Origin: Diplonema japonicum
Taxonomy: Eukaryota; Protista; Euglenozoa: Diplonemea
Direction of reading: 5' to 3'
Length of the DNA stretch: 50,167 nucleotides
Assembly (NCBI GenBank): GCA_964019335.1
Contig: OZ025765.1
Span: forward strand, 1 to 50,167
Shown piece by piece: positions 1 through 50,167 of the stretch (the stretch's first letter is position 1; each line of letters begins with the position of its first letter). The notes under the pieces are model-generated. The model was given only the letters and a program-made list of their open reading frames with translations. It did no database searches and had not been told where the DNA came from. A program made the translations under genes and the position numbers.

Positions 1-227
1 GTTTGCGGGTTTGCGGGTTTGCGGGTTTGCGGGTTTGCGGGTTTGCGGGTTTGCGGGTTTGCGGGTTTGCGGGTTTGCGGGTTTGCGGGTTTGCGGTTTG
101 CGGGTTTGCGGGTTTGCGGGTTTGCGGGTTTGCGGGTTTGCGGGTTTGCGGGTTTGCGGGTTTGCGGGTTTGCGGGTTTGCGGGTTTGCGGGTTTGCGGG
201 TTTGCGGGTTTGCGGGTTTGCGGGTTT
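1..227 (+). repeat. Telomere-like 8-bp tandem array (GGGTTTGC)n, ~28 units, running off the window edge
   Basis: Directly visible. Units are perfect apart from one missing a G near 92-98. The G-rich strand is the + strand. Confidence 0.97.
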
Positions 228-301
228 CAGGGAAAAAAAAAAAAGTTTCACATCTTCCTATGGCGGGGGGGGGGAGAACAGCCCCCCACACCCCCGCTGG
301 C

Positions 302-3300
302 CTATCTGGCCAGCGAGCCTTTGGACCTCTTCTTGTGGGGTATGGGCCCCACCCGTGCCCTCCCCGACTCGAGCTGCAGCCAAGCCACCGCACTGTTCAC
401 CGGGGCCCAGTTCTCCTTGTTGCGCACCTTGACCGTGTCCCGCACCAGGTCGTCGCTCCCCAGCTCTTCCATCAACCTGTGCTCCGCCAAGAATTTGAAC
501 TGGGGCCCGGTCATCCCCTTGAGCTCACCCCTGCATATGTTGGCTTCGACCACGGTGCCATCCGCCCCCGTACCCTTCAGATAGATGTAGCCACCCTCCA
601 CACAATCCGAGTCAGTACTGGCCGATCGGGCCCGGGCCCGCTTCTTGTCCTTCTTGCTCCACTTCAGCTCTTCCAGGGTGGGGAGGTCCGTGGCAACCAC
701 CTCAGGCCGCCTCTCCCTGTCTTCCTCCTTCTTCCGGGCCAACAGCCCAAGGTACCTCTCAAAGGAGACGTCCTCGAACAACCCCGGGACCGTCACCACC
801 GCTGACTGCAGGTCGACCTCTTCAACACCCATCTTCCGCAGATGGTCCTGGACAGTGCGCCTCGTCTCCTTCTCGCAGGGCCCCCTCCCCTCGTAGACGT
901 CGAGGGTGACCTTCCTTCCATCCCTCACCCACGCCTTCACTTTGATCAGGTCCTTGACCTTTCCCACTGGGGCCCTTATCCTTGCGTCGCACCTCTCCAA
1001 GAACTCACGTAGTGTCACCTTGGTAGCGCCGGCTCCCGCCGCAATGCCCACTACCCCTTCCTTCCCCGGTGTCGGGTGGTGTCTGCACCCCCGGGTCTGC
1101 AACTTGACCACCCTCCATGCCGTTTCCAGAGTCCCCTTGAGCACGCCACCCTTGAAACGAACAGGTTGCACCGCCGAACACCCACACGCGTACGTGATCT
1201 GGAAATCCTGGACCGTCCTCGGGAACTCGAACTCGCGGTATGTTTCCGACTTCTGCACCTCACAACCCACAATGCGGCTGCGGCGCTCTCCGTCCGACCC
1301 ACCTTCCAAGCTTGCGAAGTACTGCTTTACCATCATGTATCCAAGTCCAGCGATACCAATCTGGCCAGCCATAGCCACCTCCAGTGGAACACCCAGCGAC
1401 TCGGCCTTCGCAAGAAGCATCTCCTCAGTCCTCTCCCTTCCAGGGTCCGTTCCTTCTTCAAGGATGATCTCCACCCGGCCCTCGAACTGGATGATGAACT
1501 TGAGCAGTCGGTCCCCCGGCCTCGCCCTCAGTGGCACCATCGCTCTCGGAATTGGGATGCCCATCACCACATCAATCGGGTCAAGCTGAACGAAGTCTCC
1601 CCCTACTTCCACCTGCTGTTCCCTTTCCGGTGCCCCGACTCCCATCAGCTGATCTCCCTCCGGCGTCTGGATCCCACCCCTAGGTGTGTCAGGCCCCGAC
1701 TGGCTGCCTCCGCTCGGTGCGTTCCCGCCCTCTTTGGTCCCTTCGGGGGCGTCATCCGCCTGCGGCTTCAGAGTCCTCCCACCGCCCTGTCTCTTCGCAG
1801 CTTGTTCCCTACAGAATTCGCTCACGGTCATCTTCCTCGTAGCAGTTGTCGCACTCTGGTCCCCCTTGTTCGAGTCCCTCTGGGCCTCCGTATCCCCCTT
1901 AGGACACTCGTCCAAGGTCTGGTTCACCGCAGCGTCAGTCGCCCCTTGTCTCTTCCCATCTTCCTGGGCCTTCGGGTCAAGCCCCCCTCCCTGCCCAGCC
2001 CTCTCGCTGGATCCTGTTCCGGCCATCTCCGTGTCTTCTCCTCCCGGCGAGGCTGCTTCGAGTCCTGCTCCCGCTTTCCCTTGTGTTCCACCCTCCACCG
2101 GTTCCGCCTTTCGCTGCTGCTGCATTCGGGCGTCCAGGTCCTTCTTCGTCTGCTCCAGAAGGGCATCCAGCTGGTGGGCCACCGTGATTGGGGGTCCGCC
2201 TCCCTGTCCCTTCACTTCCCTCTCGGACGACTCCTCAGCTTCGGTGGTTTTTTCATTGCCGAAGGAGTCCTCTGTGAGGTCAGTGTTGGATTCAGTGTTG
2301 GGTTCGTTGTTCGCTTCCACGTTGTCCTTTTTTTCCTCTTCGCCGTCCGGTACCGGGGGCCCTGGATCCAACTGTACAGGCCCTTTGACTAACAGCGCCC
2401 CTGCTATCGATCTCATCATGGCCGTTGACACCTCTTGGACCACACGCCTGTGTATCGAGACTCTGTCCCCGTGAGCCCGCGCAGCTATGCTCCTGGACAG
2501 TTTCTTCGTGAGGTAGACTGCTGCCTCCCCGAACCCCCCAAAGGTCTCCATCGCGAAAGGTACAAAGGCCACGCGTGTCTTGGCGAGCTCCGCCTCATAC
2601 TTCTGGCGCTTGTAGTGTTCCGCCTTCGCCGCTGCGTACCCCGCAGTCTTCGCCGCCTGGTTGACACAAGACTCGTTCCTCGGGTGCACGATGACCGCGT
2701 CCATAGCCATTGGGCGGGAACCCCCCACCCCACCTGGGAAGAACACGTCCGCCGGGCGCTGGGACGACCCCGGGATCAGCCCCGTCTTCTCCATCGTTGC
2801 GCTCACCCCGGCCCACTGACAGTGTCTGTGGATGGTCTCCTTCACCCGGTCGTGCCTCGCAATCCTGGCGTTGCCGCATCCCTGGGCATGGTCACCCCAT
2901 ACGTCCATCCCCTCAGTCTTGCACCTCGGGTCGTGGCAGCTCTCACCCTGCTTGTAGACCGGAGCCCCCAACCACCACTTGATCAGAGCCCCAAACTCGT
3001 TGTCCGACAGCTGGTTGTAGAAGTCAGGCGTCGCCGTCAACCACGCCCCCGCATAGTGCATTGACTCCGACATCAACCTCGCTCTCGAGCGTGCATCTGC
3101 TTTCGCCAAGAGGTCCTCCAGCGCCTTCTCATCAAGCACCCTAGAGAGCCACCTCTGGCTGCAGATGTGGGGGGCCTTGGCCACCATGTCGGGTGTAATC
3201 TGCATGCCGCCTTTCGTCCTGTTGAACCACTCGAGCCAGCTCCCCCATACACCCCCTTCCAGCCCATGTTCGTATTTGGGATCCAGCTCCTTGCACAGCT

Positions 3301-6300
3301 TCATCGTCGACGCCCTCGAAGCCATGTTGGCCGCGCGCAGGTGCTCCTGGCAGCTCCTCATCCCAAGCCCACCGACTTTTACGGACAGTTTCGCCTGCTG
3401 CCATTCTTTCGACCCGCTCTCGAACTGCATGCCGCACACCTTCGACATCGTCTTCCGCACCATCTCGTCGAACCTGTGCATGACCCCTCCCACATGCGAG
3501 TCTGGGACCACTCTCATGTAAAACACCAGTTTGCTGTATGAGCTGCAATACCGGAGAAGTGTGTACCCTGTCTGCCTCCCCACCTTGGTCAGCATGTCGA
3601 AGTTCTCTTCCAGCGCGTCCAAGCGTTTGTTCAGAAAGGCTTGCGTGTACTCCGGCGATCCTATCGGCGCCCCCAGGAGCATGAAGTTCCTCTCTTTGTG
3701 GAAATTCTCTTCTGTCAGGCCATCGAAGCCTGTGTCCTCCACTGTCTGGGGGAGGTCGCCACTAACCCATATGAGCTCGCACTTCTGGGGTTTCACTTTC
3801 AGCCCTATCATTCCGCTCAGCTCACACAAGATGTTGTACGCCTTTCTCACTTCATCCACATTCCCCACAAGGACGCCATCGTCCAGGTAGAACTGGAGGA
3901 TGTCCAGGTTGCAGTCTTCACTTATCTTGTTCACCAGGGGTTGGATGGCCAGAGAGAACAGCAGTGGTCCCATCGGGTCCCCCTGTTGCACCCCTTCCTG
4001 GGACTTAATCACCTTTCCGTTGTAGTATAATTGGGAGGGCACCCTGTAGCACCAATCGGCCCACGCATACAGCCCCGACGCTTGCTCATAGGCCTGTGAG
4101 CACAGCTGTCTCCGACAAACACTGTTGAAGGCGTTGGCGTAGTCGATCTTGAGGATCACCTTGTTTTCCTGCTTGTTGCCCCGTTCCCTGTCCACATACT
4201 GCCTGATGGTGTGTATAGCCGCCTCCATTCCAGCAGGGACCGATACCCCCACCTGGCCGCCTTTCTTCAGGTACGAAGAGGCCACTTCCGGAGCGATCTT
4301 CTTCACAAGGGATTTCCCCACCAGCCGACGCAGCACATCCCCAACGGCTATGGGCCGCACGTCCCTGTCGTTCTTCTTGAGGGCCACAAGGTTCGCCCCT
4401 GCCATCAGCGGAGCCACCTCCCTAGGGGCCGTGCCTCTAGCTAATGCGTTGACTGCCCTCGTCACCGACATCAAACAGCCTTGAGACTCAAAAGCTCCGT
4501 CCACCGCGTCCTTGATGTGCTGGGCTCTCAGACCAGTCGGTCCCGCAGCAGTCCCCCTCGGGAAGTCCCTGATTGCGTCCAGCACTTCTTCCGGCAAGAC
4601 TTCTACCGCTTCCTTCGTCTTCGCCGGGTTGTCCCATTGGGGGTGTAGTGGCTCTGGATGTTTGCTCTGCAGCGCTCTCCAACAATCCTCATTGTCTTCC
4701 GCCAGCCCCTGGGCTACAAGCGCCGCGTTTCCTGCCGAGAACCTCCCTTTGCTGCACAGTTCCGTGGCCCTGGCGACCTTAGAGACCTCGTCGTTCTTAG
4801 GTTCCCCCTTCTCACCTGATTCCAGCTTATTCCAGAGGGCCATGTAATTTCCCTTCTCCCACTCCTCCAATCTGGCCTGGACACTCAGCTCCGTCTCCTT
4901 GTCCCGCTTCTTCCCTCCCCTCTTCTTCCACAGGCAGGCTTTGGGGAGCATCGCCACCAGCAGCCAAGCCTCCTCTGTGTTGTCCTTCACCGCCCGGCCC
5001 AGAGTGTGCTTAAGGGTAAGCCCCCACAGTCTTTGAAGGCTCGTCAGGATCGACCCCATGGTCGTGACGTTCATGGCGGCTATGGCTTCCAGGCTGGGTA
5101 ACTCGGTCCTCGTCGGGGCCGGCGGGGGGGTCGTGTATTCCCCTTCCCTTCGCACCGCCTTTTTGCACTCGTCGTGGCACCCCTGACCCTTCCACACACA
5201 GCCCCTGCACACCAGGCACCTCTTGAGGTCCAGTCTCCTCAGAACACTCTCCAGGATCTCATCACTCTCCAGGTGCCCATCCAGGTGACACTTCCATACC
5301 CTTGTCGAGTTGAACGGGGTCGTGCTTTTGCACTTCGACCTAGCGCAGTTCGCCACCGGACAGTACAGGAATTGCTGGTTCCTTGCCCCCATCTGGTCCA
5401 ACACCCCTGCCTTCCCGTATCCAGGGATTGCACGGTCTATTATGTCCCACTCCCCGATGTCCTCACCCGGGGCCTCGGAGGGTTGCTTACCTGCCTTTTG
5501 TAGAGCAACCGATTGGGACTCATCAAGGAGCATCATCATCGACTCCTCCTCTCCGACTGCATACTCGTAGTGGTTGCCGTTGTACGCCAGCACCACCACC
5601 TTCTCATGGTCGGAGTTGTACTCCCCTATCATCAGGACTGGGTTGTTCCCCCCAGCAACCACGAGTATCGTGCGGCCAAACGCTTGTGCTGCGGCTGCCA
5701 GGCACAAGTGGTTCCACGTCGCCGCTGTGCCCATCCCTTCCAAGTACCGGTCCCAACCCTCGCTGCAAAACGGGGCATAGTGCTCCTCCCGGTGTTTCAT
5801 CCATTCTACAACCTCGCTCCTGATGTGGGTGTGGTCCCCGTAGGCTTCCCCGAGCGAACCAGCCAGGGTGTGGAACATGCAGTTCCCGTCCTTCTCTGTC
5901 AATCTCCTTGTCAGCTTGAAGCTCTTCATGATCTCGTCCACTGACTTGCCAGCCCTGGGTTGTTTGTTGGGGTTCCACAGATTCCGCTGCCTGTGTAGTG
6001 CACAGTGCATCTGGTTCAACGAGCACACCACAGCACACGTTCCACAGAGGTTCACCTTCATGTTCCTCGCCTGCTCTTGTTTCACAAAATGATGGTGGAC
6101 CGCATTGAGGTGTTTAACTAGACAGCTTGCCACACTGGTGTGGAAAGAGCAGCCTTCCATCCGGCATTGATGTTTGTCTGTTCCTTCTTTTTCCCCCTCC
6201 TTCTGCGCCTCCGTGTGCTCATCATCCAAATCCATGGGGGGAGTGTCACCACCTCCTTGCAACGCGTCCCCTGCCAGCGTCAAGTCCGCAAAGGGGTCCA

Positions 6301-6565
6301 GGTGTTCGGCCTGAAAGAGCTTATCCTCCGTCTCAGCTCGTTCCTTCGCTGCTTGCTTGGCGTCCTCCTTCTTTTTTCTGCGTCTTGAGCTTCTAGGCGG
6401 GCCCAAGTACACCGGCAGGTAGTGACCTCTCGATCCGCATCTTGTCTTCCTCAGCTTTACCGGTCCGAATCTCTGGGTCAGGTCAGCACCAGCTTTCCCC
6501 ACCATCACTTCCAACATGGCCCAGAGCGACATCAGCCCCCCTATCCAAACTGAAGTGCTTCCCAC
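302..6565 (-). CDS. Retrotransposon polyprotein: C2H2-like Zn fingers, OTU cysteine protease, reverse transcriptase, CCHC plus restriction-like endonuclease, long C-terminal extension
   Basis: OTU: DGNCMF...YNGNHYE (~5560-5910). RT: GPTGLR, RPIAVG, KIDYANAFN, GVQQGDPMGP, YLDD (3878-3889), GGLG. RLE: CHDPRC..DHAQGC, RHD, RPADV, KRQKY, PFAMETFGG. These are CRE-clade-type motifs. The listed start is a GTG; the true start is probably upstream. Confidence 0.93.
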   Translation of the reverse strand: MGSTSVWIGGLMSLWAMLEVMVGKAGADLTQRFGPVKLRKTRCGSRGHYLPVYLGPPRSSRRRKKKEDAKQAAKERAETEDKLFQAEHLDPFADLTLAGDALQGGGDTPPMDLDDEHTEAQKEGEKEGTDKHQCRMEGCSFHTSVASCLVKHLNAVHHHFVKQEQARNMKVNLCGTCAVVCSLNQMHCALHRQRNLWNPNKQPRAGKSVDEIMKSFKLTRRLTEKDGNCMFHTLAGSLGEAYGDHTHIRSEVVEWMKHREEHYAPFCSEGWDRYLEGMGTAATWNHLCLAAAAQAFGRTILVVAGGNNPVLMIGEYNSDHEKVVVLAYNGNHYEYAVGEEESMMMLLDESQSVALQKAGKQPSEAPGEDIGEWDIIDRAIPGYGKAGVLDQMGARNQQFLYCPVANCARSKCKSTTPFNSTRVWKCHLDGHLESDEILESVLRRLDLKRCLVCRGCVWKGQGCHDECKKAVRREGEYTTPPPAPTRTELPSLEAIAAMNVTTMGSILTSLQRLWGLTLKHTLGRAVKDNTEEAWLLVAMLPKACLWKKRGGKKRDKETELSVQARLEEWEKGNYMALWNKLESGEKGEPKNDEVSKVARATELCSKGRFSAGNAALVAQGLAEDNEDCWRALQSKHPEPLHPQWDNPAKTKEAVEVLPEEVLDAIRDFPRGTAAGPTGLRAQHIKDAVDGAFESQGCLMSVTRAVNALARGTAPREVAPLMAGANLVALKKNDRDVRPIAVGDVLRRLVGKSLVKKIAPEVASSYLKKGGQVGVSVPAGMEAAIHTIRQYVDRERGNKQENKVILKIDYANAFNSVCRRQLCSQAYEQASGLYAWADWCYRVPSQLYYNGKVIKSQEGVQQGDPMGPLLFSLAIQPLVNKISEDCNLDILQFYLDDGVLVGNVDEVRKAYNILCELSGMIGLKVKPQKCELIWVSGDLPQTVEDTGFDGLTEENFHKERNFMLLGAPIGSPEYTQAFLNKRLDALEENFDMLTKVGRQTGYTLLRYCSSYSKLVFYMRVVPDSHVGGVMHRFDEMVRKTMSKVCGMQFESGSKEWQQAKLSVKVGGLGMRSCQEHLRAANMASRASTMKLCKELDPKYEHGLEGGVWGSWLEWFNRTKGGMQITPDMVAKAPHICSQRWLSRVLDEKALEDLLAKADARSRARLMSESMHYAGAWLTATPDFYNQLSDNEFGALIKWWLGAPVYKQGESCHDPRCKTEGMDVWGDHAQGCGNARIARHDRVKETIHRHCQWAGVSATMEKTGLIPGSSQRPADVFFPGGVGGSRPMAMDAVIVHPRNESCVNQAAKTAGYAAAKAEHYKRQKYEAELAKTRVAFVPFAMETFGGFGEAAVYLTKKLSRSIAARAHGDRVSIHRRVVQEVSTAMMRSIAGALLVKGPVQLDPGPPVPDGEEEKKDNVEANNEPNTESNTDLTEDSFGNEKTTEAEESSEREVKGQGGGPPITVAHQLDALLEQTKKDLDARMQQQRKAEPVEGGTQGKAGAGLEAASPGGEDTEMAGTGSSERAGQGGGLDPKAQEDGKRQGATDAAVNQTLDECPKGDTEAQRDSNKGDQSATTATRKMTVSEFCREQAAKRQGGGRTLKPQADDAPEGTKEGGNAPSGGSQSGPDTPRGGIQTPEGDQLMGVGAPEREQQVEVGGDFVQLDPIDVVMGIPIPRAMVPLRARPGDRLLKFIIQFEGRVEIILEEGTDPGRERTEEMLLAKAESLGVPLEVAMAGQIGIAGLGYMMVKQYFASLEGGSDGERRSRIVGCEVQKSETYREFEFPRTVQDFQITYACGCSAVQPVRFKGGVLKGTLETAWRVVKLQTRGCRHHPTPGKEGVVGIAAGAGATKVTLREFLERCDARIRAPVGKVKDLIKVKAWVRDGRKVTLDVYEGRGPCEKETRRTVQDHLRKMGVEEVDLQSAVVTVPGLFEDVSFERYLGLLARKKEEDRERRPEVVATDLPTLEELKWSKKDKKRARARSASTDSDCVEGGYIYLKGTGADGTVVEANICRGELKGMTGPQFKFLAEHRLMEELGSDDLVRDTVKVRNKENWAPVNSAVAWLQLESGRARVGPIPHKKRSKGSLAR

Positions 6566-6619
6566 CAGAGTGCCCCCTACTGCTAGCCAAGCGAGCTCCC
6601 CAGCGGACCATTCATCCCC

Positions 6620-7171
6620 TCAGGGCCCCACCTGTACCCTTGACCTGCAGGTGGTCCTCCTGTTGCTCCCCAGCCTCTTCCACAACACTGCCACATGCAG
6701 GAAGGAGGGGGCCATCCCAATGCCCGCCCCCAGCACCTGCCTCACCCCTGGGATCAGCAAGAGGGAGACCAGGGCGACCCAGGCCCACACCCCCAGGTGC
6801 TCCCATCTCACCCCTTCCTTGCTGTGTCCCGTCCGTCTGCGGTGCCTCCTTGTGCCAGTTGCAGCCCCAGGTGCCAGGATTCTGGGTGCCAGGGGTTGGG
6901 CTCCAGGCGTTCCCACCTCAGTCCACTTCAGCCCCATTGCAGGGTCATCTGGCTTCTGTTCCAGGGCGGCCTCGTGTTCCTCTCTGCGGGCCCTCCTCCT
7001 CCCTTCTTTCCTCGCACGACAGTGCCTTTTCTTCTCCTGTCTGGCAGCCTCCCTCGCCCCCTCCCTCGCCTTGGTCCTCTTCTCCCAACGCCTCTGAAGG
7101 GCCGTTTCGCTCCTGTGCCTCCTCCTGTTCTTCTTCCGCTTGGGCACTGGCTTAGGTTCCCTGCCACCCAT
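6620..7171 (-). pseudogene. Probable N-terminal part of the RT ORF (basic region plus hydrophobic segment), cut off by one in-frame TGA
   Basis: The ATG at 7171 is in frame with 302..6565. The only interruption is TGA at 6620-6622 (CCC TGA GGG); codons from 6619 down to 6566 are open. Confidence 0.6.
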
Positions 7172-7395
7172 GGCAATCCAGGGGGCTCTTTTCTGTCTTC
7201 TCACAAGGGTGTGCAGTGGTGCTCTCACATCGCTCACAGCCTCCACCCCAACCACACCTTGGCGGGCGGTGGGGGTGGGTGCTGGGTCCCCCTGGTTGTT
7301 TGAAAAGAAAAAAGGTTCCTCCTTGTTTGTTTTTTTTTTTTCTTTCCCTTCCACCCTCAAAAAAAGCCCCTGGCCCTTGGGGACCAGGGTGTACA

Positions 7396-7690
7396 CCTCC
7401 GTAGAGGGTCCAGAAAAAATGGGGGGCAGAGAGGGAGGGGCACTACCTTCTCTCGGGTGTGCTGTCTCTCCCTCTGCCTTTTTTTCCTCCAAAGAGGGTC
7501 TGTTTTTCACCTCCGTGGAGGGTCCCTCTGGAGAGGGCTCTATAAAAGAAAAAGGGGGGGACGAATGGGGGGGAGGAACACTACCCTCTCTCGGGAGTGC
7601 CACCTCTTCCCCTTTCTCTCTATTTTCCTCCGAAGAGGGTTCTAAAAAAAAAAGGGGGCAGGTGGGGCACTATCCTCTCTTGGGAGTGCC
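7396..7690 (-). repeat. Inter-ORF array of repeated RNA hairpins (5 x CCUC-NNNN-GAGG; 3 x GCAC..GAGA..GUGY)
   Basis: Small hairpins at 7396-7407, 7486-7497, 7510-7521, 7525-7536, 7627-7638. Larger ones at 7440-7462, 7577-7601, 7666-7690. Confidence 0.75.
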
Positions 7691-8694
7691 ACCCCCCCTT
7701 GCCCACAAAAAAGGGGATCTAAAAAAGGGGGTTCGTCTGTTAACCCAGGGGATGGGTCTTCCTGGGGTGTGCAGGTGAGCTTGGGGCCTACCACACACAG
7801 GGTGATCGACACCCTGACACCAGTGGACATCCCGGACGGGATGTGGTGCGTCCACTGGTGTCTTGCTTCACCTTCCAACAATGCCCATGAGAAGGGGGGC
7901 ACCAGGTATTTCGCCACCCTGTCCCCCCTCCTCATGACCATTGTGGTCTCGGCTCCGTACGAGAGGACTAGGACAATCGGTCCCAGCCTTGCGTCGTCCT
8001 TGTGGGCGGCAATCCCACAACCAGACTTGTACTTGTTGACAAGTACCTGGTTGGGGACCACCTCAAGCCCTGCGGCGGCGGCCACCTCCCTCACCCACCC
8101 CTCCGCCCCCCCTGGGATCCCTGTGGTGGGGCGCACCTTGGCGTTCGTCCCCTCCCACCAGTACCCGTATTGGAGGGTCTCCCTCCCTGAGTTCTCAGAC
8201 AGGGCCTCCCACTTTCCTGAAAGCAGGGCTTTCAGGAAGGCAGGGGCCAGGCCCGTCCTCAACCCAGGAGGGTGTTCACCATACACCAGTACCCACCCCT
8301 TTTTTTCTCCCTCTTTTCTTCCCTCTTCAACAATAGCAGGGTCAGCTGCAGGGGTCGTGGTTGCGGTGGTCGTGGCTGTGGCAGGGGCAGCTGCAGCGGT
8401 CTCAGTTGCAGTGATCAGGGTGGCAGGGTCGGCTGCGGCGTTCAGGGCGGCTGGGGCGGCTGTGGCTGTAGCAGTGGTGGTCAAAACCGCAGTCTCTGCT
8501 AGTGATTTTTTTATTTTATTATTTTTTTTTTCTAAAGGGGGGTGGGGGGATCTAGGGGGTGGGGATTCATACTGCCCAACCAGATTGCCTGGTTGGGTGG
8601 GTCTCGGCGCCGTGTGCTGTGGGCTGCAGGCTTGCTCCTGCAGGCTGCAGCTGCAGCTGTGGTCACCTCCTCCTGCAAGTCGTCTTGGATCCAT
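7642..8694 (-). CDS. AlkB-family 2-oxoglutarate/Fe(II) dioxygenase with Ala/Thr-rich N-terminus (retroelement ORF1)
   Basis: PNQVLVNKY..GIAAHKD (HxD at 7996-8004), LVLSYG, LLEGEARHQWTHHI, RVSITL(C). The ATG at 8694 follows an A-run ~170 nt downstream of the SL. Confidence 0.85.
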   Translation of the reverse strand: MDPRRLAGGGDHSCSCSLQEQACSPQHTAPRPTQPGNLVGQYESPPPRSPHPPLEKKNNKIKKSLAETAVLTTTATATAAPAALNAAADPATLITATETAAAAPATATTTATTTPAADPAIVEEGRKEGEKKGWVLVYGEHPPGLRTGLAPAFLKALLSGKWEALSENSGRETLQYGYWWEGTNAKVRPTTGIPGGAEGWVREVAAAAGLEVVPNQVLVNKYKSGCGIAAHKDDARLGPIVLVLSYGAETTMVMRRGDRVAKYLVPPFSWALLEGEARHQWTHHIPSGMSTGVRVSITLCVVGPKLTCTPQEDPSPGLTDEPPFLDPLFCGQGGVALPREDSAPPAPFFF

Positions 8695-8865
8695 TTTTTT
8701 TTTTTTTTTTGTTTTATAGTGTGTGTTGGGGGGGAGGGGATCCTTTTGTTGAGTGGCAGGCAGGCCGACAGGCAAAACAACCCCCCCAGACGACAGCGAC
8801 AACGGACAACAGACGCAGCAGCAAACCCAGGCAGAGGCAGCAGGCACCAGCAGAACACAAACAAC

Positions 8866-8903
8866 CAATAAAGTACAGAAACTGTAGCTTTAGAATCATT
8901 GGT
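8866..8903 (-). other. Spliced-leader (mini-exon) sequence, diplonemid type, in a retroposed context
   Basis: The minus strand reads ACCAATGATTCTAAAGCTACAGTTTCTGTACTTTATTG. Its 3' half is the conserved kinetoplastid/diplonemid SL end CAGTTTCTGTACTTTATTG. It is followed by GTTGTTTG rather than a recognisable SL intron. Confidence 0.92.
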
Positions 8904-8950
8904 GTGGGTTTGCAGGTTTGCAGGTTTGCGGGTTTGCGGGTTTGCAGGTT
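8904..8950 (+). repeat. Short decayed (GCGGGTTT)n array, ~6 units
   Basis: GTGGGTTT GCAGGTTT GCAGGTTT GCGGGTTT GCGGGTTT GCAGGTT. All variants are CpG to TpG/CpA changes. Confidence 0.9.
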
Positions 8951-9936
8951 AACAACCAATAAAGTAGTGGCTGTTCAGAATTCCATTTTCAGGACCAACT
9001 TGGGTGTTCAAAAAAAAAAATTTTTTTTACCCTCCCAGTGTTGTTATGAGAATGAGTTACCCCCCTGAAATTTTTGGATTTTTACTTACTTTTTACTTCA
9101 GAATATAGTTTAGAGATGTGTATTCCACCTAAACACCTTTCTGAACTTTTTGGTTTGCAGAAATGGGTTTATTAGGTGTTTTTAATATAAATTTCATGAT
9201 TTCTGGCTTTTTCCAGAAAAAAAATTTTAGGGTCAAAAATGGCTAAAGTGACCCCAAGTTTGGGGTCCCCTGGGAAAAAAAAATTTTTTTTTTGGCCAAA
9301 AATTTCCAAAAAAGTCTGTTTTGAGGGTGCTATAGGAGTGAGGGTCCCTAGAAAAAAAAATTTTTTTTTGCCCCCCCACCCCCCCACCCCCAGGTTTTTT
9401 CCTGTAACAACACTGAGCAGGTCTCTGGATGTGGAACTCTGAAAGTGTTTCAGCTTTTCCTGCAGCTCCTTCACCTTAAGCTGTGCAAGCCTCAGCTTTG
9501 CTTCCGTCTCAGAAAGGTGATTGGGGTTGGTTGAGGTAACTTCTACAAGGTTGTACACTTGTTCATCCACAGTTTTGGGAGGGAAGTGGAAAATGATTCC
9601 AGGCTCCTACTAACATACACAAGCAGCTGCAACCCTAGGAATGACACCAACAATCATACCATCCCAAGCCACTGCCTTGTCAGTTGCAGTTGGTATCGTG
9701 TTTTTACCACCAGTAGTTCTTCAATTTTAGTAGTGGCACATGGCTTTGAGGAGGAAGATGAAGACAAACAGGAACCAGTACTGTTACTCCTTTTTCTTTT
9801 CTTCTTGTTGTTGTTGTTGTTGTTGTTGTTGTCATCTCTCAGTACCTGTATAACATCTTTTCTTGTAGACATCTGTTTATACGTTTGAACTCCACAGCAA
9901 AAAAAAAGGGGGGATGTGGTGTTGTGGTTGTATCTT

Positions 9937-10037
9937 GTCCAGTCCAGTTCAGTCTGGTCTGCTCTGGTCCAGTCCAGTCCAGTCCGGTCTGGTCCAGTCT
10001 GGTCTGGTCCAGTCCAGTCCAGTCCAGTCAGTCCAGT
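9937..10037. repeat. 5-bp microsatellite of CCAGT/CTGGT/CCGGT units
   Basis: Visible mixture of units, best explained as a decayed (CCGGT)n. A shorter tract lies at ~10842-10868. Confidence 0.85.
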
Positions 10038-10845
10038 GTTGGTCAGTCATCCCATCCCCTAAAACAGAATACAGGCCTGGATGGGACTCACAGGACTCCA
10101 CAGGACAGGACTCAACAGGACTCATGGGACTCTCCCCAACACTGTCATTATTTTTGATAGTTTTGCAACTTTTTTTTTTTTTTTTTTCTCTTTTTTTCCC
10201 TTTGGAAAAAAAAAAAAAAAAAAAATGGGGAAAAAAAAAAAGAGAAAAATCCTTGATTGACATACATGATGTGTTTACCTTTTTTTTTTCTCCTTCTTTT
10301 TTTCTTGTCTTCTCACATTTTTTTGCACACCTAAGCCAAGCTGTTGTTTCTGCTTTCCACATCAAATGTTGTATTTGGATGTAATAGAAAAGGGGAAATA
10401 ATAAATAATATGTATAAGAGGAGGGTGTGTATGTTTATACAACCTGTGTAAACAGATTGGTTCCTTGCTTTCAGCACCATGCCCCTAAATGCATGCAATG
10501 TACAGCTCAACTCCTGCATCACACTGCCTGTTTGTTGCACATATTTTCATGTTCTTGTATCCCCCCCCCCCCCCCCCCCACCTGAAAATAATATATAGGA
10601 GATAAATATATGAGTTATAGGAGGCTGGTGTTGGCAGCACCCTGTACAAGAACTGTCTACTTATTACGGGGGTATACTGCAGCTGAGTTGTAGCTTCTTC
10701 TGCATTCTGCATTGTTTCCTTAATCACCACGGCCAGGATGTAGCTTCTTCTGCGTTCTACATCATGCCCTTAATCACTGCAGCCAGGTTGTAACTCCTGT
10801 CCCTTGGAGTCCCCTGAGTCCCTCAAGGGTCTGGACCAACACTGG
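10033..10845. mobile_element. Possible MITE or non-autonomous DNA transposon
   Basis: Inverted 12-mer CCAGTGTTGGTC (10033-10044) / GACCAACACTGG (10834-10845), plus inverted GGGACTC-rich subterminal motifs (~10083-10130 vs ~10795-10822). Confidence 0.45.
10484..10790 (-). repeat. CpG-decayed copies of a dispersed non-coding repeat also found at ~40957-41000 and 47021-47545
   Basis: 10612-10725 aligns by eye to the reverse complement of ~47435-47545, and 10484-10515 to ~47408-47440. Confidence 0.8.
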
Positions 10846-11598
10846 TCTGGTCCAGTCTGGTCTAGTCCTAATTAGGATTCACCCATCACTGATGTCAGCT
10901 TTGGGCAGCTTCTGGAGTACTTCTTCTCTATATGTCCTCTGCTCATCCTTCTTTTTCTTCTTTATGCCTTGCCCTTCTATTCCAACATCCAGTTGCACCA
11001 GCAGACTCCACTCCCATGGGGGAAAGGGTGATGAGTTGTGAAGAGGTGCTCTTTTGTACTTATTCAATTTGTTCTCATTGATTGCCCTGCTCCTTGCCTT
11101 AAAGAGCCAGGTTCCTCTTGCTGTCCCTGCCCCCATTGCTGCAGTGTGCCCACTTGTCCCCTCCATCCTTACAAGCTTCTCATACATGGATGACGTCTCG
11201 TATTTTATCATCTCCCATACCGGCCATAGCCTTGTGATTTTCAGGAGGTCTTGGATAGGTGTTGTAGGAAGGCAGCCTGTTATGATGCGTGTTCATCCAG
11301 GTGGGATAGTGAATCCCCCACTTGGCCAACAAGTAACAAAAAAAGAAAGTGCATTCACACAAAATTTAAAAAGAGAGAGAGCACAAGAAATTAAAAAAAA
11401 AAAAAAAAGAGAACAAGTGTATGAATAGAAGAATGCTATGGAAGAAAAGAGAAATAAAAAGTTTGTGAGCAGCAACCTTATCTATCCCTGTTTACCCCCC
11501 CCCCAATTTTTCAATACACTTACCTGTAAAAAAACGTAACCCAAAAGCAAGCTAGGGCTTACCTCTCCTCAACACAATTTAAGAAGAATGTCTTTTTA

Positions 11599-13206
11599 AT
11601 GGGATTTTTGAATATGGTCACGAAGAGGAAAGCACCATCTGTGAGCCTGCAGGTTGTGTTCCCAGGATCAAGAACCATCAGCATCGAGGCAGAGGCCAAT
11701 GAACAGATGAAAACAGTGAAGGAAATGGTGGCGAAAGCAGCAGATCTTTCTGCAGATAACTTTTCTCTCACCTTCGAAGGGGAGGAGGTAGGCAGTGAAG
11801 ATGACACAAGGCTCGTCTCGGATCTGCCTTTCGAGGATCAGAGCGTTCTTCAGGTGGTTGTCAGTGAGAAGTACAAGAAGCAAGAAGCCTTGAAGAAGCT
11901 TTCTGTTCTGGGGTGGGAAGGATCGACACCTGAAGATGTTAAAGCAAAAATGGAGCGTGTAAAGTACCTTCGGGTGAGACATCGAGCTCCTGCAATATGC
12001 GAGGATAAGAAGTACTGGTATGTTTTTGCTGCGATGGTAGATGCAGGACTCTGTGAAGACAAGGATACGTTGGGGGACCTGTTGGTTTATTTTGCTGAGA
12101 ACAACTTTGTTCGTTGCATAGAGCTATTCATAACACGTACCAACGTTGACGCAACAGGGCGGTTCGGTTTGAATGCTCTGCAAACTGCTTCGAGATACGG
12201 TTTTGCAGACGCTGTGTCCCTTCTCCTGGCAGCACATGCAGATGTGCTTGTAACAACAAGAGAGAACATGACCCTTCTCCACTTAGCAACAGGCGAGGCT
12301 GTTGTGCGCCTCCTCCTCACAACACCCATTGATGTCAATGCAAAGGATGCTTCAGGACGTACTCGGCTATGCCTTGCATCGCTTAACGGAGAAATAGGTG
12401 TGATTACCCTCCTCCTTGAATCGTCTGCCGATGTTAACAAGAAGGACAGTAGTGGCAACTCACCACTTCACCTTGCACAAAACGGGGATGTTGTTGCTTG
12501 CCTGCTTCAAGCCAAGGCGATCGACGTGAACGCCAGGAACGTATTCAGTCGGACTCCGCTCCACTTCACCGTGAATGCAAAGTGCGTCAATGCTTGTTCT
12601 TGTCTCCTTGCATCGTCTGGCGATGTGCATGTGAAAGACAAGTATGGCAACACGCCTCTTCACTATGCTGCAGCACGCAGCCTTAGTAGCATCTCGTCCC
12701 TCCTCCTTACTTGGTCCGCCAATGTGAATGCAAAGGACAACAAAGGGGGAACACCGCTGCATTTGGCAAGGAATAAGAACATGGCTGCCTTACTGCTTCG
12801 TCACGGGGCCGACGTTGATGTAAGGAACTGCAATGGAGAAACCCCTCTGCATGTTGCTTCTCTGCACTGCCGTGCAGATGTGGTGTTGGCCCTGCTTGCA
12901 GCGTCTGCTGATGTGAACACACTAGACCACGATGGGAAGACAGCGCTTTTCTTGGCACCAAAAAGGCACATTGCGGCACAGCTCCTACTGCACAAGGCCG
13001 ACGTGAACACCAAAGCGAGAAACGGTGTGACCCCTCTGCACCAGGCTGTCTGCCATGGGGACCACAGCATTGTGTCCCTCCTCCTCGCATCAGGTGCCGA
13101 TGTGAGCACAGAGGACGCCCATGGCAACACAGCTTTGCATCTTGCAAGAGGTGAAAAAATCGTCTCAGCTCTTAAAAAATCGTCACAGTCCTCTCGGATG
13201 TTGTGA
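11599..13206 (+). CDS. Ubiquitin-like domain plus long ankyrin-repeat protein
   Basis: UBL-like N-terminus (LQVVFPGSRTISIE..VKEMVA..LTFEGEE..LQVVV) and about ten G-x-TPLHxA ankyrin motifs. Confidence 0.9.
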   Translation: MGFLNMVTKRKAPSVSLQVVFPGSRTISIEAEANEQMKTVKEMVAKAADLSADNFSLTFEGEEVGSEDDTRLVSDLPFEDQSVLQVVVSEKYKKQEALKKLSVLGWEGSTPEDVKAKMERVKYLRVRHRAPAICEDKKYWYVFAAMVDAGLCEDKDTLGDLLVYFAENNFVRCIELFITRTNVDATGRFGLNALQTASRYGFADAVSLLLAAHADVLVTTRENMTLLHLATGEAVVRLLLTTPIDVNAKDASGRTRLCLASLNGEIGVITLLLESSADVNKKDSSGNSPLHLAQNGDVVACLLQAKAIDVNARNVFSRTPLHFTVNAKCVNACSCLLASSGDVHVKDKYGNTPLHYAAARSLSSISSLLLTWSANVNAKDNKGGTPLHLARNKNMAALLLRHGADVDVRNCNGETPLHVASLHCRADVVLALLAASADVNTLDHDGKTALFLAPKRHIAAQLLLHKADVNTKARNGVTPLHQAVCHGDHSIVSLLLASGADVSTEDAHGNTALHLARGEKIVSALKKSSQSSRML

Positions 13207-13350: not shown

Positions 13351-15564
<2,214 letters not shown>

Positions 15565-19512: not shown

Positions 19513-22500
19513 ATGACGCTGGCTGCCGTGCTGGCGCTCGCCATGGCTGGGCTTCCCACCATGGAGCACTACAAGTACTCGCTGAGCGCGGGGGGCGACA
19601 TCCAGCTTCCGTTGGAGGGGGAGGAGGAGGAGCAGTTCTCGCGGGCTGCAGCGACGTTGGGGGCCACGCCGTTCACGTCGACGCAGCTGCTGTGGCCGAA
19701 CGGACACGCTCACTACTATGTGGAGACGGCGAAGACGAACGCGGGGAACCCTGCTGACCACTTCCTGCAGAGTGGGGACAGCAGGATCACGGCGGCTGTC
19801 GCACACTGGGAGACGCACACCTGCATCAGGTTCACGAAGTGCAGGTCGTATGCAAGCTGCCCGAAGCCCTTCATGTACTTCGTTTCCGACAAAAGTCAGT
19901 GCAACTCGTTCGTCGGGGTGCACTACACGAAGGTGAACCAGATCAACCTGCAGAAAGGCTGCTCCGTTGGCGCGACCATCCACGAGATCGGGCACGCCCT
20001 CGGCCTCGCCCACGAGCAGTCCCGAAACGACCGAGACCAGTACGTTTATGTGGACTTCAACCAGATCAAGTCGACCCCACCCTCAGACTTCAGGTCGAAC
20101 TTCTACAAATCGGGTACGAACGGGCGCGACATCGGCAGCTACGACTACAGGAGCATCATGCACTACGGGCCGACAGGCTTCGCCAAAGGATCGCTCCCGA
20201 CGATCGTCTCCCCGCAACCGATCGGGCAGAGGTCGGCCCTGTCTGAGGGAGACATCGCAACGATCCACTTCATGTACAACCGTTGCAAGAGACGGTTCCC
20301 GAAGCCGACCTGCACCTCGTCCCTTGGCAGCACCGCGACCCGGCGCGTGATCCCCTACTCCAAGCCCTTCACGGTGGAGTTCAATGCACTCTACGGATCG
20401 GGCATGACCGTGAGCTACGGTGGCGCGATGGCACCCCCTGGGCCCAGGATGTCGTACAGCAAGTCGTCTGGGTCTAGCCTCGGGAAGGTGGGGAACACGA
20501 AAGTGACCTTCACGCCTTTGAGGTGGCAGAGGGGAAGGGACTACACGATGCGAGCGACCTTCACTGGGAGCGACGGCAAGGCGGAGACGTGCAGCGTGGA
20601 CGTCACTGTGGCGGACTCCGACACGGTTTGCTTCGGGGTGGCCTCGACAGATCCGAAGGTCTGCTCGGGGAGGGGGACCTGCGGGACGGACCTCCTCGCC
20701 CCCTGCACCTGCGACGGGGCGTACGGTGGGCTTCAGTGCTTCGGCTACGCGAACTGCCCTGACAACCAGCTCCTCTCCTTCGATGAAGATGTTGGCAGTG
20801 TGAACAACTTTGGGGACATCGGGGTCGAGGTTGGCTTCGCAGCGAAGGGTGGCGGCTCCCTGCGTGTCGGCACTGTCGGAGACCCTTCTGCCAACGGGCA
20901 GGGTTCGCTCACCCTCACCAAGAACTCTAAACCCGAGCGCATCACCTTCTACATGTCGAAGTTCGCCGACCCCACGTCCTCACCCTCGATCTACTTCCAA
21001 GACAGGACTACCGGGTCGATCTGCTTCGTAACAGGGATCAACAACGGGGCGTGGCACCTCAACTTCGCCTCCATCAGTGCCGCCACCACCCCGAAGACCT
21101 TCTTCTTCTTCGACATCCAAGTTGACTGGGCGGCTTCGAAGGTTAGCGTTTCCGTTGACGGGAAGCAGGAGGTGAAGGACAGGTCGTTTGTTCATTCCTG
21201 TGACTCTGGGATGAACTACGTGGCTATGTTCAAGGGAGGGTACTACGATGAGTTCCACTTGTGGTGCACGAGCTACCTGCAGACGAGTGGCTCCCTCATC
21301 GAAGGGATCACGCAGGAGGGTCTCCGGGCAGGGGGTGCGACACTGACCCTGACGCTCGTTGGTGACCACGACGAGTGGGTGAACACCGCGGCCACGAAGC
21401 AGAAGGTTGTGGCGTCGATGGAGGCGAGCTTCCCGAACGCTGCTGGGTGGAACGCGCTCGAGTCGACGATGCTGGACACCTCTCTGGTCTCTGTCTCCGG
21501 AGCGGTGCTGACGATCGGTCCCCTGCGCCCCGCCCCGACCTTCTCCATCGAGGGGTCTGAGACGGTGTCCATCGGGTTCACGGCTGACATGTTCACGAGC
21601 GGCACCCCTCCTGCATACTCCAGGGATGAGGCTTCTTTCCTCATCCCTGGCGACTGCACCTCGGGTGTCTTCCTCCCCTTCGACAGCCTCTCTGACGAGA
21701 GCTCCAGGGTGGTTGAGGTCAGCAAGTCAGTGAAGAAAGAGGGAGCCGGGTCCCTCACTTGGACAGACTACCGTTACGTGTACGACATCCCGGTCGGTGG
21801 CATCCGCCCCCCCACCGCAAGCTTCTATGGAAGGGTCGGTAGTTCAGCATCCAGACTGACCTTCACGATGAAGGATTCTACTGGCCAGCAGCTTTCCATG
21901 ATCTTTAACAACAATGGGAAAATCGTCTTCAACACCGGGACTTGGAACTTCCTCTCAGTCACCATCAACCCCAACAAGTGGTACCTCGTGAAATTCGAGT
22001 TCAATTGGGCAACGAACAAGGTAAAGGTGAAGGTTGGTGGGCGACAGAAGTTCTCGGGCTCCTTCCCGAGCACTTTCAAGAACATTGCCACGCTGCGCCT
22101 GAGTTCCACCACCTCCTCCACCGGGGTGTACATCGACTCCATCCGCTTCACCTGTCCTGTGAGGGAGCCCCTCTTCGACGTGTCCCCCTCCTGCCCTGTC
22201 CCTGGGGAGGACGCGCCAGTCTTCCACATCTACCAGGCCTCCGACGCGCTGTCTCCCTCTGACCACCTTGCCATCGTGCCCGCGACCGCCACGGACTGCT
22301 CCTCTGCTGATGTGCAGTGCTCTGCCCTCGACGCCTGCTCGAGCTCTGTCGGGTCGCTTGTGCAGGTGGGTGGTGGTGCCACCGAGTGGAGCCCTGGAAC
22401 CCTCCCCTCCCTGAGCCCTCAGACAGAGTACAAGATGTGCTACTACCCTTCCAGCCACGGGAGCTACATCATGCTCGACAGTACTTTCACGACCTGTGGG

Positions 22501-27444: not shown

Positions 27445-28620
27445 GTGATGAGGGGAACGCGTGATGCGGAGAGAGCCGCGGGTGCGAGACCAAGGACGGG
27501 TGCAAAGACGGGTGTTAAGAGGAACAGAAGCCCACCGCCCACATTACCGAAGAACGAGCCTCTCGTCATCACCTCCCTGAACGTCGCGTCCTTCAACAAC
27601 AGGATGGGGGAATGCAAAGGACTGGATCCCGATGTGTTCTGTGTACAGGAGACGGCACTGACGGCGACGGTACAGCGGGAGATTGAACTCTCTCTCGGGC
27701 GAGATGCGTGGGGGAGGGCCTACGAAAGACACTGGGGGAAACCACAACCAGGCCGGGTGGGCGGTGGAGTGGTGTCACTTACAGTCGCACAAAGGGGCGG
27801 GGTCGCGACCTTCGTGAAAAGGCCCCGAGCCTCTCTGAGGTGCAGCGCAGGAGACGAGCTGGAAGCGTACAAGAGCCGCTGCGTGCACACGAAGGTATCA
27901 TTGGACGGCAGCAAGCGATGGCTTCATGTGCTGAACGTCTACTGTCCTGCTGGCAATGAGGCAGTGCAAGCCAGGGAACGGGAGCAACTTCTGCATCACA
28001 TTCTGGTCAGGAAGCGAATAGAGCTGGGAGACGTGCCGATCGTGGTGATCGGGGACCTCAACTGCGAGGAGGATCGGTCGCCGACCTTAGAAAAGGCTTT
28101 GGCCTCGGACTGGGTTGATGCGGCGGCTGCATGTGCGGCGTTGAGCGGTGCGACACCCGAATCGACTTTGAAGAGGACCAACTCCCATTCTCGGATCGAT
28201 AGGGCGCTTCTGAACCCCCTTGCTGCACAGTTTCTGATACGCTGTTGGGTGCATGATGGCGTGGAAGGCTCAGACCACAGGTGCTTGTCGCTGGAGTTGG
28301 GGACAACGAGAATCCGGCGGGCAGTGCTGCAGTACTCGATCCCGAGGGAGATACCGGAGGTAGCGATGACAGAAGAAGACCCCGAGCCGTCGCTGGCGGA
28401 TTCCATCTTTGAGCGGTGCATTCAGGATAGGCAGGTGGACGAGGCCCACAGGGAATGGGCCAGACTCGCAGAACAGCATTTGATGCGGGGTTTCGCAGGG
28501 ACCACGGCGGGGGCTTACCTTGGCAGGGGTGAGACGAGGTTGCCGAAGCTGAGGGAACTGTGTCCACCTGCTACGGAAGAGATTGTCGGTGCGGTGTGCG
28601 ACCGACAAAGGAAGCTGTGA
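27445..28620 (+). CDS. LINE apurinic-like endonuclease (APE/EEP) domain
   Basis: SLNV, VQET, GGVA, NVYCP, GDLN, SRID, SDH motifs. Confidence 0.9.
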   Translation: MMRGTRDAERAAGARPRTGAKTGVKRNRSPPPTLPKNEPLVITSLNVASFNNRMGECKGLDPDVFCVQETALTATVQREIELSLGRDAWGRAYERHWGKPQPGRVGGGVVSLTVAQRGGVATFVKRPRASLRCSAGDELEAYKSRCVHTKVSLDGSKRWLHVLNVYCPAGNEAVQAREREQLLHHILVRKRIELGDVPIVVIGDLNCEEDRSPTLEKALASDWVDAAAACAALSGATPESTLKRTNSHSRIDRALLNPLAAQFLIRCWVHDGVEGSDHRCLSLELGTTRIRRAVLQYSIPREIPEVAMTEEDPEPSLADSIFERCIQDRQVDEAHREWARLAEQHLMRGFAGTTAGAYLGRGETRLPKLRELCPPATEEIVGAVCDRQRKL

Positions 28621-31600: not shown

Positions 31601-31688
31601 GAAAGAAAGGATTGGAAGATATAAACGACAGCTAGGCACTACGGTGGGTAGCAGGGAACGACCCCAAAAGGGGAGCATCATAAGGTAG
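28560..31688 (+). CDS. LINE reverse transcriptase with C-terminal Zn knuckle (frameshifted continuation of the APE ORF)
   Basis: GVDG, LIPK, RPITV, LDFAKCFD, GILQGCPLS, YADD, and CDVC..HQLWEC. Confidence 0.9.
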   Translation: MSTCYGRDCRCGVRPTKEAVKLKRCVEAAQRQIEDHLRRGHVGQLPQVTHNTLKNANARCVKLGIDCAVPMHGSLESTEEAIAEVRDVAGRQIAALCTEQKCSRAEAYERTIVSNLDEGRRHLTALLRGTQCERSVAVDAGDGVTADPQEMDEVFREAWKGIFCSERREPHFSDFRKKYEEHIQHQEMPRSEITGRLLQEVLSRKRPRGACGVDGWRNAELKRLPRWVLDGLADLFNLIEREGRWPEAMCTALVSLIPKGAGLGPLDHRPITVTSAVYRLWACARLRTVLPWQERWICERQHSFRKGRGTETALLDLLAQYEEAMLEGKELVGAALDFAKCFDLVPQRLTFELMRSLGLEPGIACAMEGMYSQITRRFKYPFGVGETFRVTNGILQGCPLSVIMINALIAVMLKALEAGGDLVTIAYADDAYMLAKLREALQAATDGVMEFCTVTGMELNFRKTVVIGKCIIHVGSEVDGRRRKVRLNKVDKHKALGTRLNTTACGTSWNDAAVTARQKVERLASTQLSFQRKESLIRTHIMPGLLYSSSFSPPSDWSLSQLKGSIVKCLWGPHYRGRSPDVVLSILARAHRVDPLCAVVYSALMMLRRCWLRQDGAMAAWTQLAQAYETSGQVRPRGVVGNVLLRWLPAIGWKWERLASWHRGENPGHDLREALRRMRTSGIVKARSTMAGLGMGAAPATNAYWMKCSARRPLEAWRVRRIIAGAVPYLSPYSKQVLLSPPEEPDEEGGEGSEEEADHLDRGRTDKAAGTLNCDVCDAAKGSTVRLLRHQLWECEVALEVQKKEVYNGLVRSERWPVCLELHGILPRKVVFRGLERLQRYLAEVVRRRDDALAVKRFAVEKEPPWVVTTQGRRFEAPKVVELYKLKLTPQLREYGDQVLRWLAALRWAEEGTSVSAIELAIDFECYTKKTLGVNINTTIDIDKKAVRIKRILDTLQATWMREKRRRAFPAQSCKNVRSLRSIGRDHVVGFDRRALLASGLTATKLKGLREDYRKERIGRYKRQLGTTVGSRERPQKGSIIR

Positions 31689-50009: not shown

Positions 50010-50167
50010 TATTTAATTTTAATTCTTTTTTTTTTTTTTTTGGCTCTTTTGGCACCGGGCTTCAGGGGTCCCAAGAACAAAGAAAAAAAAAAAAAAAAAA
50101 AAAAAAAATCATGGTGGGTTAGCCCGGCGAAGGGAACCTGAACACCACAACACCGCGGAGCCAAATT

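Follow-up and report, generated by a model that had tools for sequence, protein, structure and literature searches.

The first 8950 nt of contig OZ025765.1 of the diplonemid Diplonema japonicum (assembly GCA_964019335.1; the window analysed here is the 50,167 nt stretch from position 1 to position 50,167 of this contig) raise the question of how a single retrotransposon came to combine a spliced-leader (SL) exon, an AlkB-type dioxygenase, an OTU deubiquitinase-like domain and arrays of the same 8 bp repeat on both sides. Read along the minus strand, the element at 1..8950 passes from decayed repeats through the SL exon, an AlkB open reading frame (ORF), a hairpin spacer, a long ORF with zinc-finger (ZnF), OTU, ZnF, reverse transcriptase (RT) and restriction-like endonuclease (RLE) segments, and a tail into pure repeats. 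This order and its coordinates had been given in an original prediction made from the letters alone, and they are borne out by the sequence, repeat, ORF and Pfam analyses. The locus is probably best described, with considerable room for doubt, as a multi-copy RLE retrotransposon with AlkB, OTU and a hard-wired SL that likely inserts by reverse transcription of an SL-led RNA, with 3' ends in the G-rich (GGGTTTGC)n strand as primers. This description starts from what can be read directly, namely the domain content, SL nt 2–39, the repeat on both sides with a C-rich sense strand, the junction sequences and the many near-identical copies.

Pfam matches to ORF2 (302..6532, minus strand, 2076 aa) identify an OTU domain (PF02338; E-value 2e-8, 35.2 bits against a cut-off of 23.3; 5576..5890) and an RT core (PF00078; E-value 1.8e-16; 3767..4378, with QQGDP at 3988 and YLDD at 3889), both above the curated cut-offs. 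The predicted catalytic Cys (GNC) and His (NHY) of the OTU domain are present and aligned with those of its relatives, and the domain of this copy is without 3 nt at 5712/5713 relative to the other copies. C2H2-like zinc-finger motifs at nt 6166 and 5362 lie before the RT and the RLE. The CCHC zinc knuckle and RLE (2500..2940, minus strand) are recognized by the motif C-x4-C-x10-H-x3-C-x6-RHD-x19-E-x10-RPAD-x15-D at nt 2938–2700 (RHD at 2857, RPAD at 2758); the knuckle spacing falls slightly outside the SLACS/CRE/MoTeR consensus as quoted in PMC12857005. The C-terminal extension of ORF2 comprises about 700 aa with no recognized fold, and its last 413 aa gave a poor single-sequence model (pLDDT 41.7), no fold match above a Z of 4.2 and no phmmer match among the fetched proteins. 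Upstream of ORF2 and in the same frame, a 183-aa ORF (7171–6620, minus strand) encodes a basic and then a hydrophobic stretch, and a similar stretch precedes the OTU domain in protein models from Diplonema papillatum. A single TGA separates the two ORFs and is likely a CGA decayed by one CpG transition; no read variant at 6622 is present in the displayed rows.

ORF1 (8694–7642, minus strand, 350 aa) is assigned to the AlkB-type 2-oxoglutarate–Fe(II) dioxygenases by PF13532 (E-value 2.6e-12, above the curated cut-off; domain at about 8193–7825) and by its similarity to the ALKBH8 structure 3thp (E-value 4.7e-9); a word-based sequence search with ORF1 gave no match. The HxD...H iron ligands are present as HKD...H. 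The 2-oxoglutarate motif RxxxxxR is incomplete, reading RVSITLC with a Cys in place of the last conserved Arg, and the corresponding RxSxTxR is kept in 46 of 47 relatives and in the D. papillatum element. This Cys fits a single CpG transition. With the last AlkB Arg replaced in the present copy, the original claim that the element carries its own modifying enzymes is not established.

The nearest named proteins, among the matches listed, are D. papillatum models annotated as 'SLACS 132 kDa protein', one of which (KAJ9461710.1) is 39% identical to ORF2 over the RT–RLE region. In a quick IQ-TREE analysis of 51 rows the RT joins five D. papillatum SLACS-annotated RTs with an SH-aLRT support of 98; SLACS, CRE1/2, CZAR, Cnl1 and MoTeR were not among the best 120 of 354 matches and are absent from this tree. 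The original assignment to a CRE-type RLE element holds in that this is an RLE non-LTR element related to SLACS-annotated proteins, and its narrower part, the CRE placement, comes from an RT tree without reference sequences; by sequence comparison, membership of the CRE/SLACS group is likely.

The AlkB domain search gave 1232 matches, and D. papillatum models are among the 150 listed. Six of the 259 proteins examined carry AlkB, all from D. papillatum and all with one identical domain; four of them also carry OTU and two also RT. KAJ9442719.1 has AlkB, OTU, RT and RLE in the order found in the window, and KAJ9464152.1 has AlkB, OTU and RT in the same order, so that a second diplonemid also combines AlkB with OTU and RT, in agreement with the linkage first proposed. 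An OTU-like domain was detected in 66 of the 259 proteins with a profile built partly from the same proteins. The AlkB–OTU–RT element is thus a diplonemid lineage that is unnamed in the literature searched. Related RLE elements (P0178, P0179, P0004, P0182, P0183 and P0202) carry further proteases of the ubiquitin or cysteine type (UCH, a second OTU-like domain and a weak papain-like match), and protease capture recurs among them.

Other copies of the element were seen as contigs from read runs (X1, X2, X3, X5, X7, X8 and X12) matched to the window. X2 and X3 behave like DNA runs, in which contig depth serves as a rough guide to copy number. Long element contigs have a depth of 1967–2923 in X2, against 66.6 for a neighbouring single-copy gene (30–44 times), and of 679–1020 in X3, against 14 (48–73 times), which suggests an estimated 30–70 near-identical copies in the genome. 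Since the copies collapse into long contigs, the family is either young or homogenized. None of the runs listed is recorded as RNA. X7 and X8 resemble RNA runs in the abundance of their SL-bearing contigs, and their coverage of the element is fragmentary; their contigs come without strand, start or level and are not evidence of expression.

The two halves of the present copy differ in their resemblance to the others: 13 differences were counted in the 5255 nt to the left of about position 5230 and 57 in the 2600 nt to the right (14 displayed records). The 5' half is CpG-decayed. Of 57 displayed differences inside the element (from 40 of 161 and 40 of 254 rows, with rows outside the element dropped), 36 restore a CpG and six go the opposite way. 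The ratio of observed to expected CpG is 0.36–0.41 at 6–9 kb and 0.07–0.10 at 9–11 kb.

For the SL exon, the row labelled 'Euglenozoa 14' is taken here to be that of Diplonema. By eye, the 38 nt from 8903 to 8866 on the minus strand agree in 35 of 38 letters with nt 2–39 of that exon (PMC3795323), which is thus hard-wired in the DNA of the element. The 3' part of the SL has a single match in the window, at 8866–8886, with 0 expected by chance. SL nt 1 is missing from the element, and the A at 8903 is common to the SL and the next repeat unit. The exon is followed by GT, as the 171 nt 5' UTR (8695..8865, minus strand) begins with GTTGTT directly after it. Between the inner array and the flank, 8951–8966 is an exact 16 nt copy of SL nt 30–39 plus the first six element bases; this sequence occurs in the window only at 8860 and 8951, and the piece at 8951–8966 is likely an abortive cDNA. 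In the X7 and X8 sets SL-bearing contigs of other sequences pile up at 8866..8903, and in X12 one loose end at 8864 keeps the SL and the GT and another behind 8903 restores the first A of the SL.

Two origins of this SL can be weighed. Trans-splicing of a transcript from a master copy that has an acceptor fits an SL at the 5' end. Alternatively, the SL could stem from an ancestral target, with a master copy that lies, or once lay, in an SL-RNA gene, as SLACS, CRE1 and CZAR do. Transcribed from the SL promoter, such a copy would supply the repeat arrays with RNA beginning with the exon. SLACS transcripts, for comparison, start at SL +1. The second origin appears possible but on balance doubtful. 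It agrees with the insertion of trypanosomatid CRE elements in SL genes (PMC12278014, PMC5994713) and with the GT after the exon and the two X12 loose ends, which are as expected of an SL gene. Moreover, a hard-wired SL leaves no AG acceptor at the join, so that a copy of this kind cannot yield the same RNA again by trans-splicing. On the other hand, neither end of this copy has an SL-gene flank or a 3' duplicated SL segment, a GT would follow the exon by chance in 1 of 16 cases, and the two X12 loose ends may be separate contigs. Maturation by host trans-splicing, as originally proposed, is therefore not established, and an SL-gene origin or a master copy with an SL promoter fits equally.

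A separate observation concerns the start of ORF2. The region 7315–7380 (minus strand) holds a U-tract and an AG at 7349–7348 upstream of the ATG at 7171, and an X2/X3 joint there has single-copy depth; as a lead only, this AG could be a separate trans-splice acceptor for ORF2. SL joints to 7343–7350 in X7 and X8 were considered as an ORF2 trans-splice site and rejected, the matched side being a 20–25 nt A-rich stretch and the depths exceeding that of the element itself.

The 3' end of the element is a 74 nt 3' UTR (228..301, minus strand) that ends in U12 and CCCUG, has no poly(A) and shows no special fold (z −0.42). Downstream of it lies a pure (AAACCCGC)n array (1..227, minus strand; period 8, 28.5 copies, 99% matches). 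At the 5' end of the element, the short inner array (8904..8950) consists of about 5.5 CpG-decayed units (5.5 copies at 8907–8950), in which every variant of AAACCCGC is a CpG transition. GCAAACCC occurs 31 times in the window against 3.5 expected, and the depth of the left-array bin is far above single-copy in X1, X2, X3 and X5. The 3' junction is ambiguous, at 228/227 or 233/232, as CAGGG at 228–232 forms an in-register variant of the repeat unit.

The two joins had originally been described as falling at the same point of the repeat unit. Repeats on both sides and a common register are true of this locus; the exact points are less certain, with the 3' join ambiguous and the A at 8903 assignable to the SL as well as to the repeat. 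In-register insertion is in any case weak evidence, because a single locus has a chance of about 1 in 8 or higher of showing it, and precise in-register targeting is not established: it concerns one locus, and most other displayed junctions lie at scattered internal positions with 0–3 nt of microhomology. The association with the repeat itself recurs in other copies, whose joins to it have the polarity seen here.

These junctions come mainly from X1 and X5. Of the 128 joints there 15 were displayed, and 13 of these lead out of the G-rich repeat into the interior of the antisense element. Six of the 13 occur in both sets and none changes strand. Their internal positions imply mostly 3'-truncated copies followed by AAACCCGC. 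Among 416 insert rows, the 12 displayed contribute a further two 3'-truncated joints and two 5'-truncated ones (3303 and 3328), so that the displayed truncations number 15 of the 3' type against two of the 5' type. Three arrangements carry a signature of template jumping: SL nt 19–2 inserted between the repeat and element position 8084, an SL end joined to element position 486 via an 8 nt duplicate of 489–496, and the 16 nt piece at 8951–8966. SL nt 2 is the end point of three junctions, one at window position 8903 and two in X1 contigs. The ten insert-free junctions share 13 nt of microhomology in total, where chance would give 6.9 (P = 0.043).

On the preferred reading, insertion from the 3' ends of the G-rich strand, the template RNA would begin with the capped SL and the RT would stop one base short, at the cap-adjacent nucleotide. 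The primer would be a 3'-OH of the G-rich strand, nicked by the RLE, as RLE biology leads one to expect, or exposed at a free end; endonuclease-independent insertion of L1 at telomeres has reportedly been seen. Judging by the junctions, priming would often start at internal RNA positions on 0–3 nt of microhomology, and the RT would switch templates; truncation at the 3' end and short inserts taken from the SL would be the outcome. The AlkB protein may repair or demethylate element RNA and the OTU domain may remove ubiquitin from element or repair proteins. The present locus would be an internalized or inverted tract, the 3' half of which was recently refreshed by recombination or by a new insertion.

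The same copies could instead have spread mainly by recombination between arrays, with no specific sequence cut by the RLE; the repeat would then be an ordinary satellite, or else a tail acquired by read-through that the element carries along. The copies are near-identical and mostly full length, with no steep gradient of 5' truncation, and the divergence step at about 5200 is sharp, as recombination would have it; moreover, an X1/X5 joint of 8944 to 1285 sets a 3'-truncated copy before the short inner array, so that the array may travel along with the element. This explanation is nevertheless considered unlikely, since the RT and RLE motifs are intact, the non-templated and SL-derived junction inserts point to RT action, and the array bin is far deeper, on a rough estimate, than one short tail per copy predicts.

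The 8-mer is probably the host telomeric repeat or derived from it. No TTAGGG pair is present in the window, and the literature search turned up nothing about the 8-mer or about telomere repeats of diplonemids; the main text of the D. japonicum genome note, as far as available, contains no telomere statement, though one mention is indexed. The repeat was found at 22 loci in metagenome contigs, as short tracts with no tblastn similarity to either ORF, and at 0 loci in viral contigs. The ends of other scaffolds would be informative: (CCCGCAAA)n at left scaffold ends would mean a canonical telomere and an internalized locus, (GTTTGCGG)n at most left ends would mean reversed polarity, and absence of the 8-mer from scaffold ends would mean a satellite.

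The polarity of the locus is unusual in that the G-rich strand of the left array is on the plus strand and runs away from the window start, while the 5' end of the element faces the gene-bearing flank, the outer array is pure, the inner array decayed and the outer half of the element fresh. Position 1 might accordingly be a true chromosome end of reversed polarity, at which the A/C-rich strand would be the one whose 3' end points outward, as would the 3' end of the elements. The position of the window start within a short pure array and the short, decayed state of the inner array would suit such an end, as would the outer 5.2 kb matching other copies next to a decayed inner half, which is the pattern after break-induced replication to an end. 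The excess of displayed 3'-type truncated-and-capped junctions is the mirror image of that of MoTeR, a fungal RLE element, and the X2 depth climbs from about 2000 at 1.2–2 kb to 2700–2900 at 7–8.8 kb. The X3 depth, however, slopes the opposite way (1020 to 680–890), priming on the G-rich strand with 3'-truncated RNA explains the same junctions, and known telomeres have the G-rich strand at the 3' end (PMC10088271). A chromosome end of this kind is thus held to be improbable, and the fuller proposal of reversed ends, with (AAACCCGC)n toward the end, kept up by an SL-led retrotransposon with predicted RNA-repair and deubiquitinating enzymes, is equally so. Under that proposal the element would erode from its 3' side, be re-capped with repeats and be refreshed by RT-primed and recombinational events.

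The orientation could also be an artefact, the join at 8950–8968 between the inner array and the gene-bearing flank being an assembly chimera that attaches a normal telomeric element backwards. No displayed contig bridges 8950–8968, and the flank at 9000–11400 is a patchwork of repeats. Against this, CpG decay changes gradually from one side of the join to the other, decay of this kind also marks the inner array and the SL, and the 16 nt SL-derived piece resembles a biological scar; a chimera is accordingly regarded as very improbable.

Several observations weigh against insertion by the lineage and mechanism preferred here. With a G-rich strand that heads away from position 1, this is no canonical telomere. 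The junctions are known from read contigs; the repeat joints come from two runs (X1 and X5) of unrecorded kind, and in 12 of the 13 the short side is only 20–26 letters, a range that often arises from repeats. Three of 15 junctions fall in GATC, GANTC or CTNAG sites against a background of 4.9%, so that some may be ligation chimeras. No repeat–element joint is present among the 15 displayed of 121 rows for X2, X3, X7 and X8, where SL-bearing contigs filled the table. Truncated copies of MoTeR and of FoTeR keep their 3' end (PMC7367193, PMC12857005), whereas the displayed truncations here are mostly at the 3' end. As to the lineage, the D. papillatum proteins come from automated gene models, in which separate ORFs lying side by side may have been fused, only the six proteins noted above carry AlkB, with a single identical domain, and the AlkB tree (149 rows) lacks resolution and does not join the window AlkB with that of D. 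papillatum.

Between the ORFs, the hairpin spacer (7380..7720, minus strand) folds better than 100 of 100 shuffled sequences (z −3.43) and holds three GCAC...GAGA...GTAGTG stems and five CCUC-N4-GAGG stems, two of them with UNCG loops. A search of the window against Rfam gave no hit at the gathering score, and none credible in 6500–9600 at E-values up to 5; thus, the spacer contains no known ribozyme.

Next to the element, at the strand switch between it and the gene cluster, 9000–11400 is a patchwork of dispersed repeats with A8T8 palindromes and the low CpG ratio of 0.07–0.10, which points to strong local cytosine methylation. The genes beyond it are on the plus strand. A gene for a protein with ubiquitin-like and ankyrin-repeat segments (11599–13206) is covered by X7 and X8 contigs that start at 11555–11557, beside an AG, which is likely its trans-splice site. 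A single ORF at 13360–15564 fuses RCC1 repeats, a weak F-box-like match and an ARF GTPase. Two tandem genes with astacin-protease and WSC domains (19513–24675 and 33436–39765) contain long PDTDA-type mucin-like repeats of differing length (15, 42 and 84 bp periods). A second LINE, of the APE type (27448–31688), has its endonuclease ORF (27448–28620) and its RT ORF (28770–31688) in different frames and separates two paralogous genes arranged in tandem, and a membrane adenylate/guanylate cyclase gene occupies 44487–46679.

The known systems closest to the element include the D. papillatum SLACS-annotated elements (KAJ9442719.1, KAJ9464152.1, KAJ9446222.1 and KAJ9461710.1; RT–RLE 36–40% identical, one RT clade). 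Some of these models have AlkB, a basic/hydrophobic stretch, ZnF, OTU, RT and RLE ordered as here, and some have a C-terminal UCH domain, which was not detected in the window element. They are known from automated protein models, for which no target site, SL cap or family description was found. Orthogroup OG0000024 has 745 D. papillatum members (PMC10161547, supplement), and the parts of that paper available mention SLACS-like RT gene models only. No RLE element bearing AlkB, or AlkB and OTU, is described in the literature searched, which did not extend to Repbase/Dfam or to the repeat section of Additional file 1 of PMC10161547. The combination, originally thought to be new, was therefore not found in print, but its architecture exists in public D. 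papillatum models, and for each of its parts other mobile elements offer a precedent.

Such precedents include AlkB in orchid Ty3/Gypsy elements (PMC9289625), OTU in Ginger1 and Helitrons (PMC2836005) and a Ulp1-like protease in NeSL and Utopia (PMC4640811), which have likewise captured an RNA demethylase or a ubiquitin/SUMO protease but belong to different element classes. An SL exon fixed in DNA as a mark of the reverse transcription of mature RNA is reported for dinoflagellate SL-tagged retrogenes; those are host retrogenes, whereas here the SL heads an autonomous element. SLACS, CZAR, CRE1 and CRE2 (PMC12278014, PMC5994713) share with the window element a euglenozoan host, a ZnF–RT–RLE protein, an internal repeat region and a 5' SL exon, but they insert in SL-RNA genes and have poly(A) and target-site duplications, whereas this copy lies in a simple repeat with no poly(A) and no 3' SL segment. 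The SL duplication on both sides that marks SLACS, CRE1 and CZAR is absent, the window containing one SL match and both flanks being the 8 bp repeat.

MoTeR1 of Magnaporthe oryzae (PMC7367193) and FoTeR of Fusarium oxysporum (PMC12857005) resemble the window element in having RT and RLE, G/C-skewed repeats on both sides, a C-rich sense strand, a 3' end followed by C-strand repeats and no clear target-site duplication, and internalized relics are known for them; those of MoTeR, with repeats at both ends, match one reading of this locus. They sit 5' end outward in TTAGGG telomeres, in contrast to the window element, the 5' end of which faces genes, the repeat of which is an 8-mer and which has an SL exon, AlkB and OTU. 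If the preferred reading is correct, a euglenozoan CRE-type element that has exchanged SL-RNA genes for a simple, probably telomeric repeat as its target would here be described for the first time, linking the SL-gene and telomere branches of the CRE group in one sequence and extending AlkB capture to RLE retrotransposons, in a lineage present in two diplonemids. The 8-mer would be a candidate telomere repeat for diplonemids, for which the literature searched states none, and the polarity at this locus would mark an internalized telomere or else a reversed-polarity end, the latter without precedent. Overall, the element resembles a MoTeR-type repeat-targeted RLE element, minus two features of that group.

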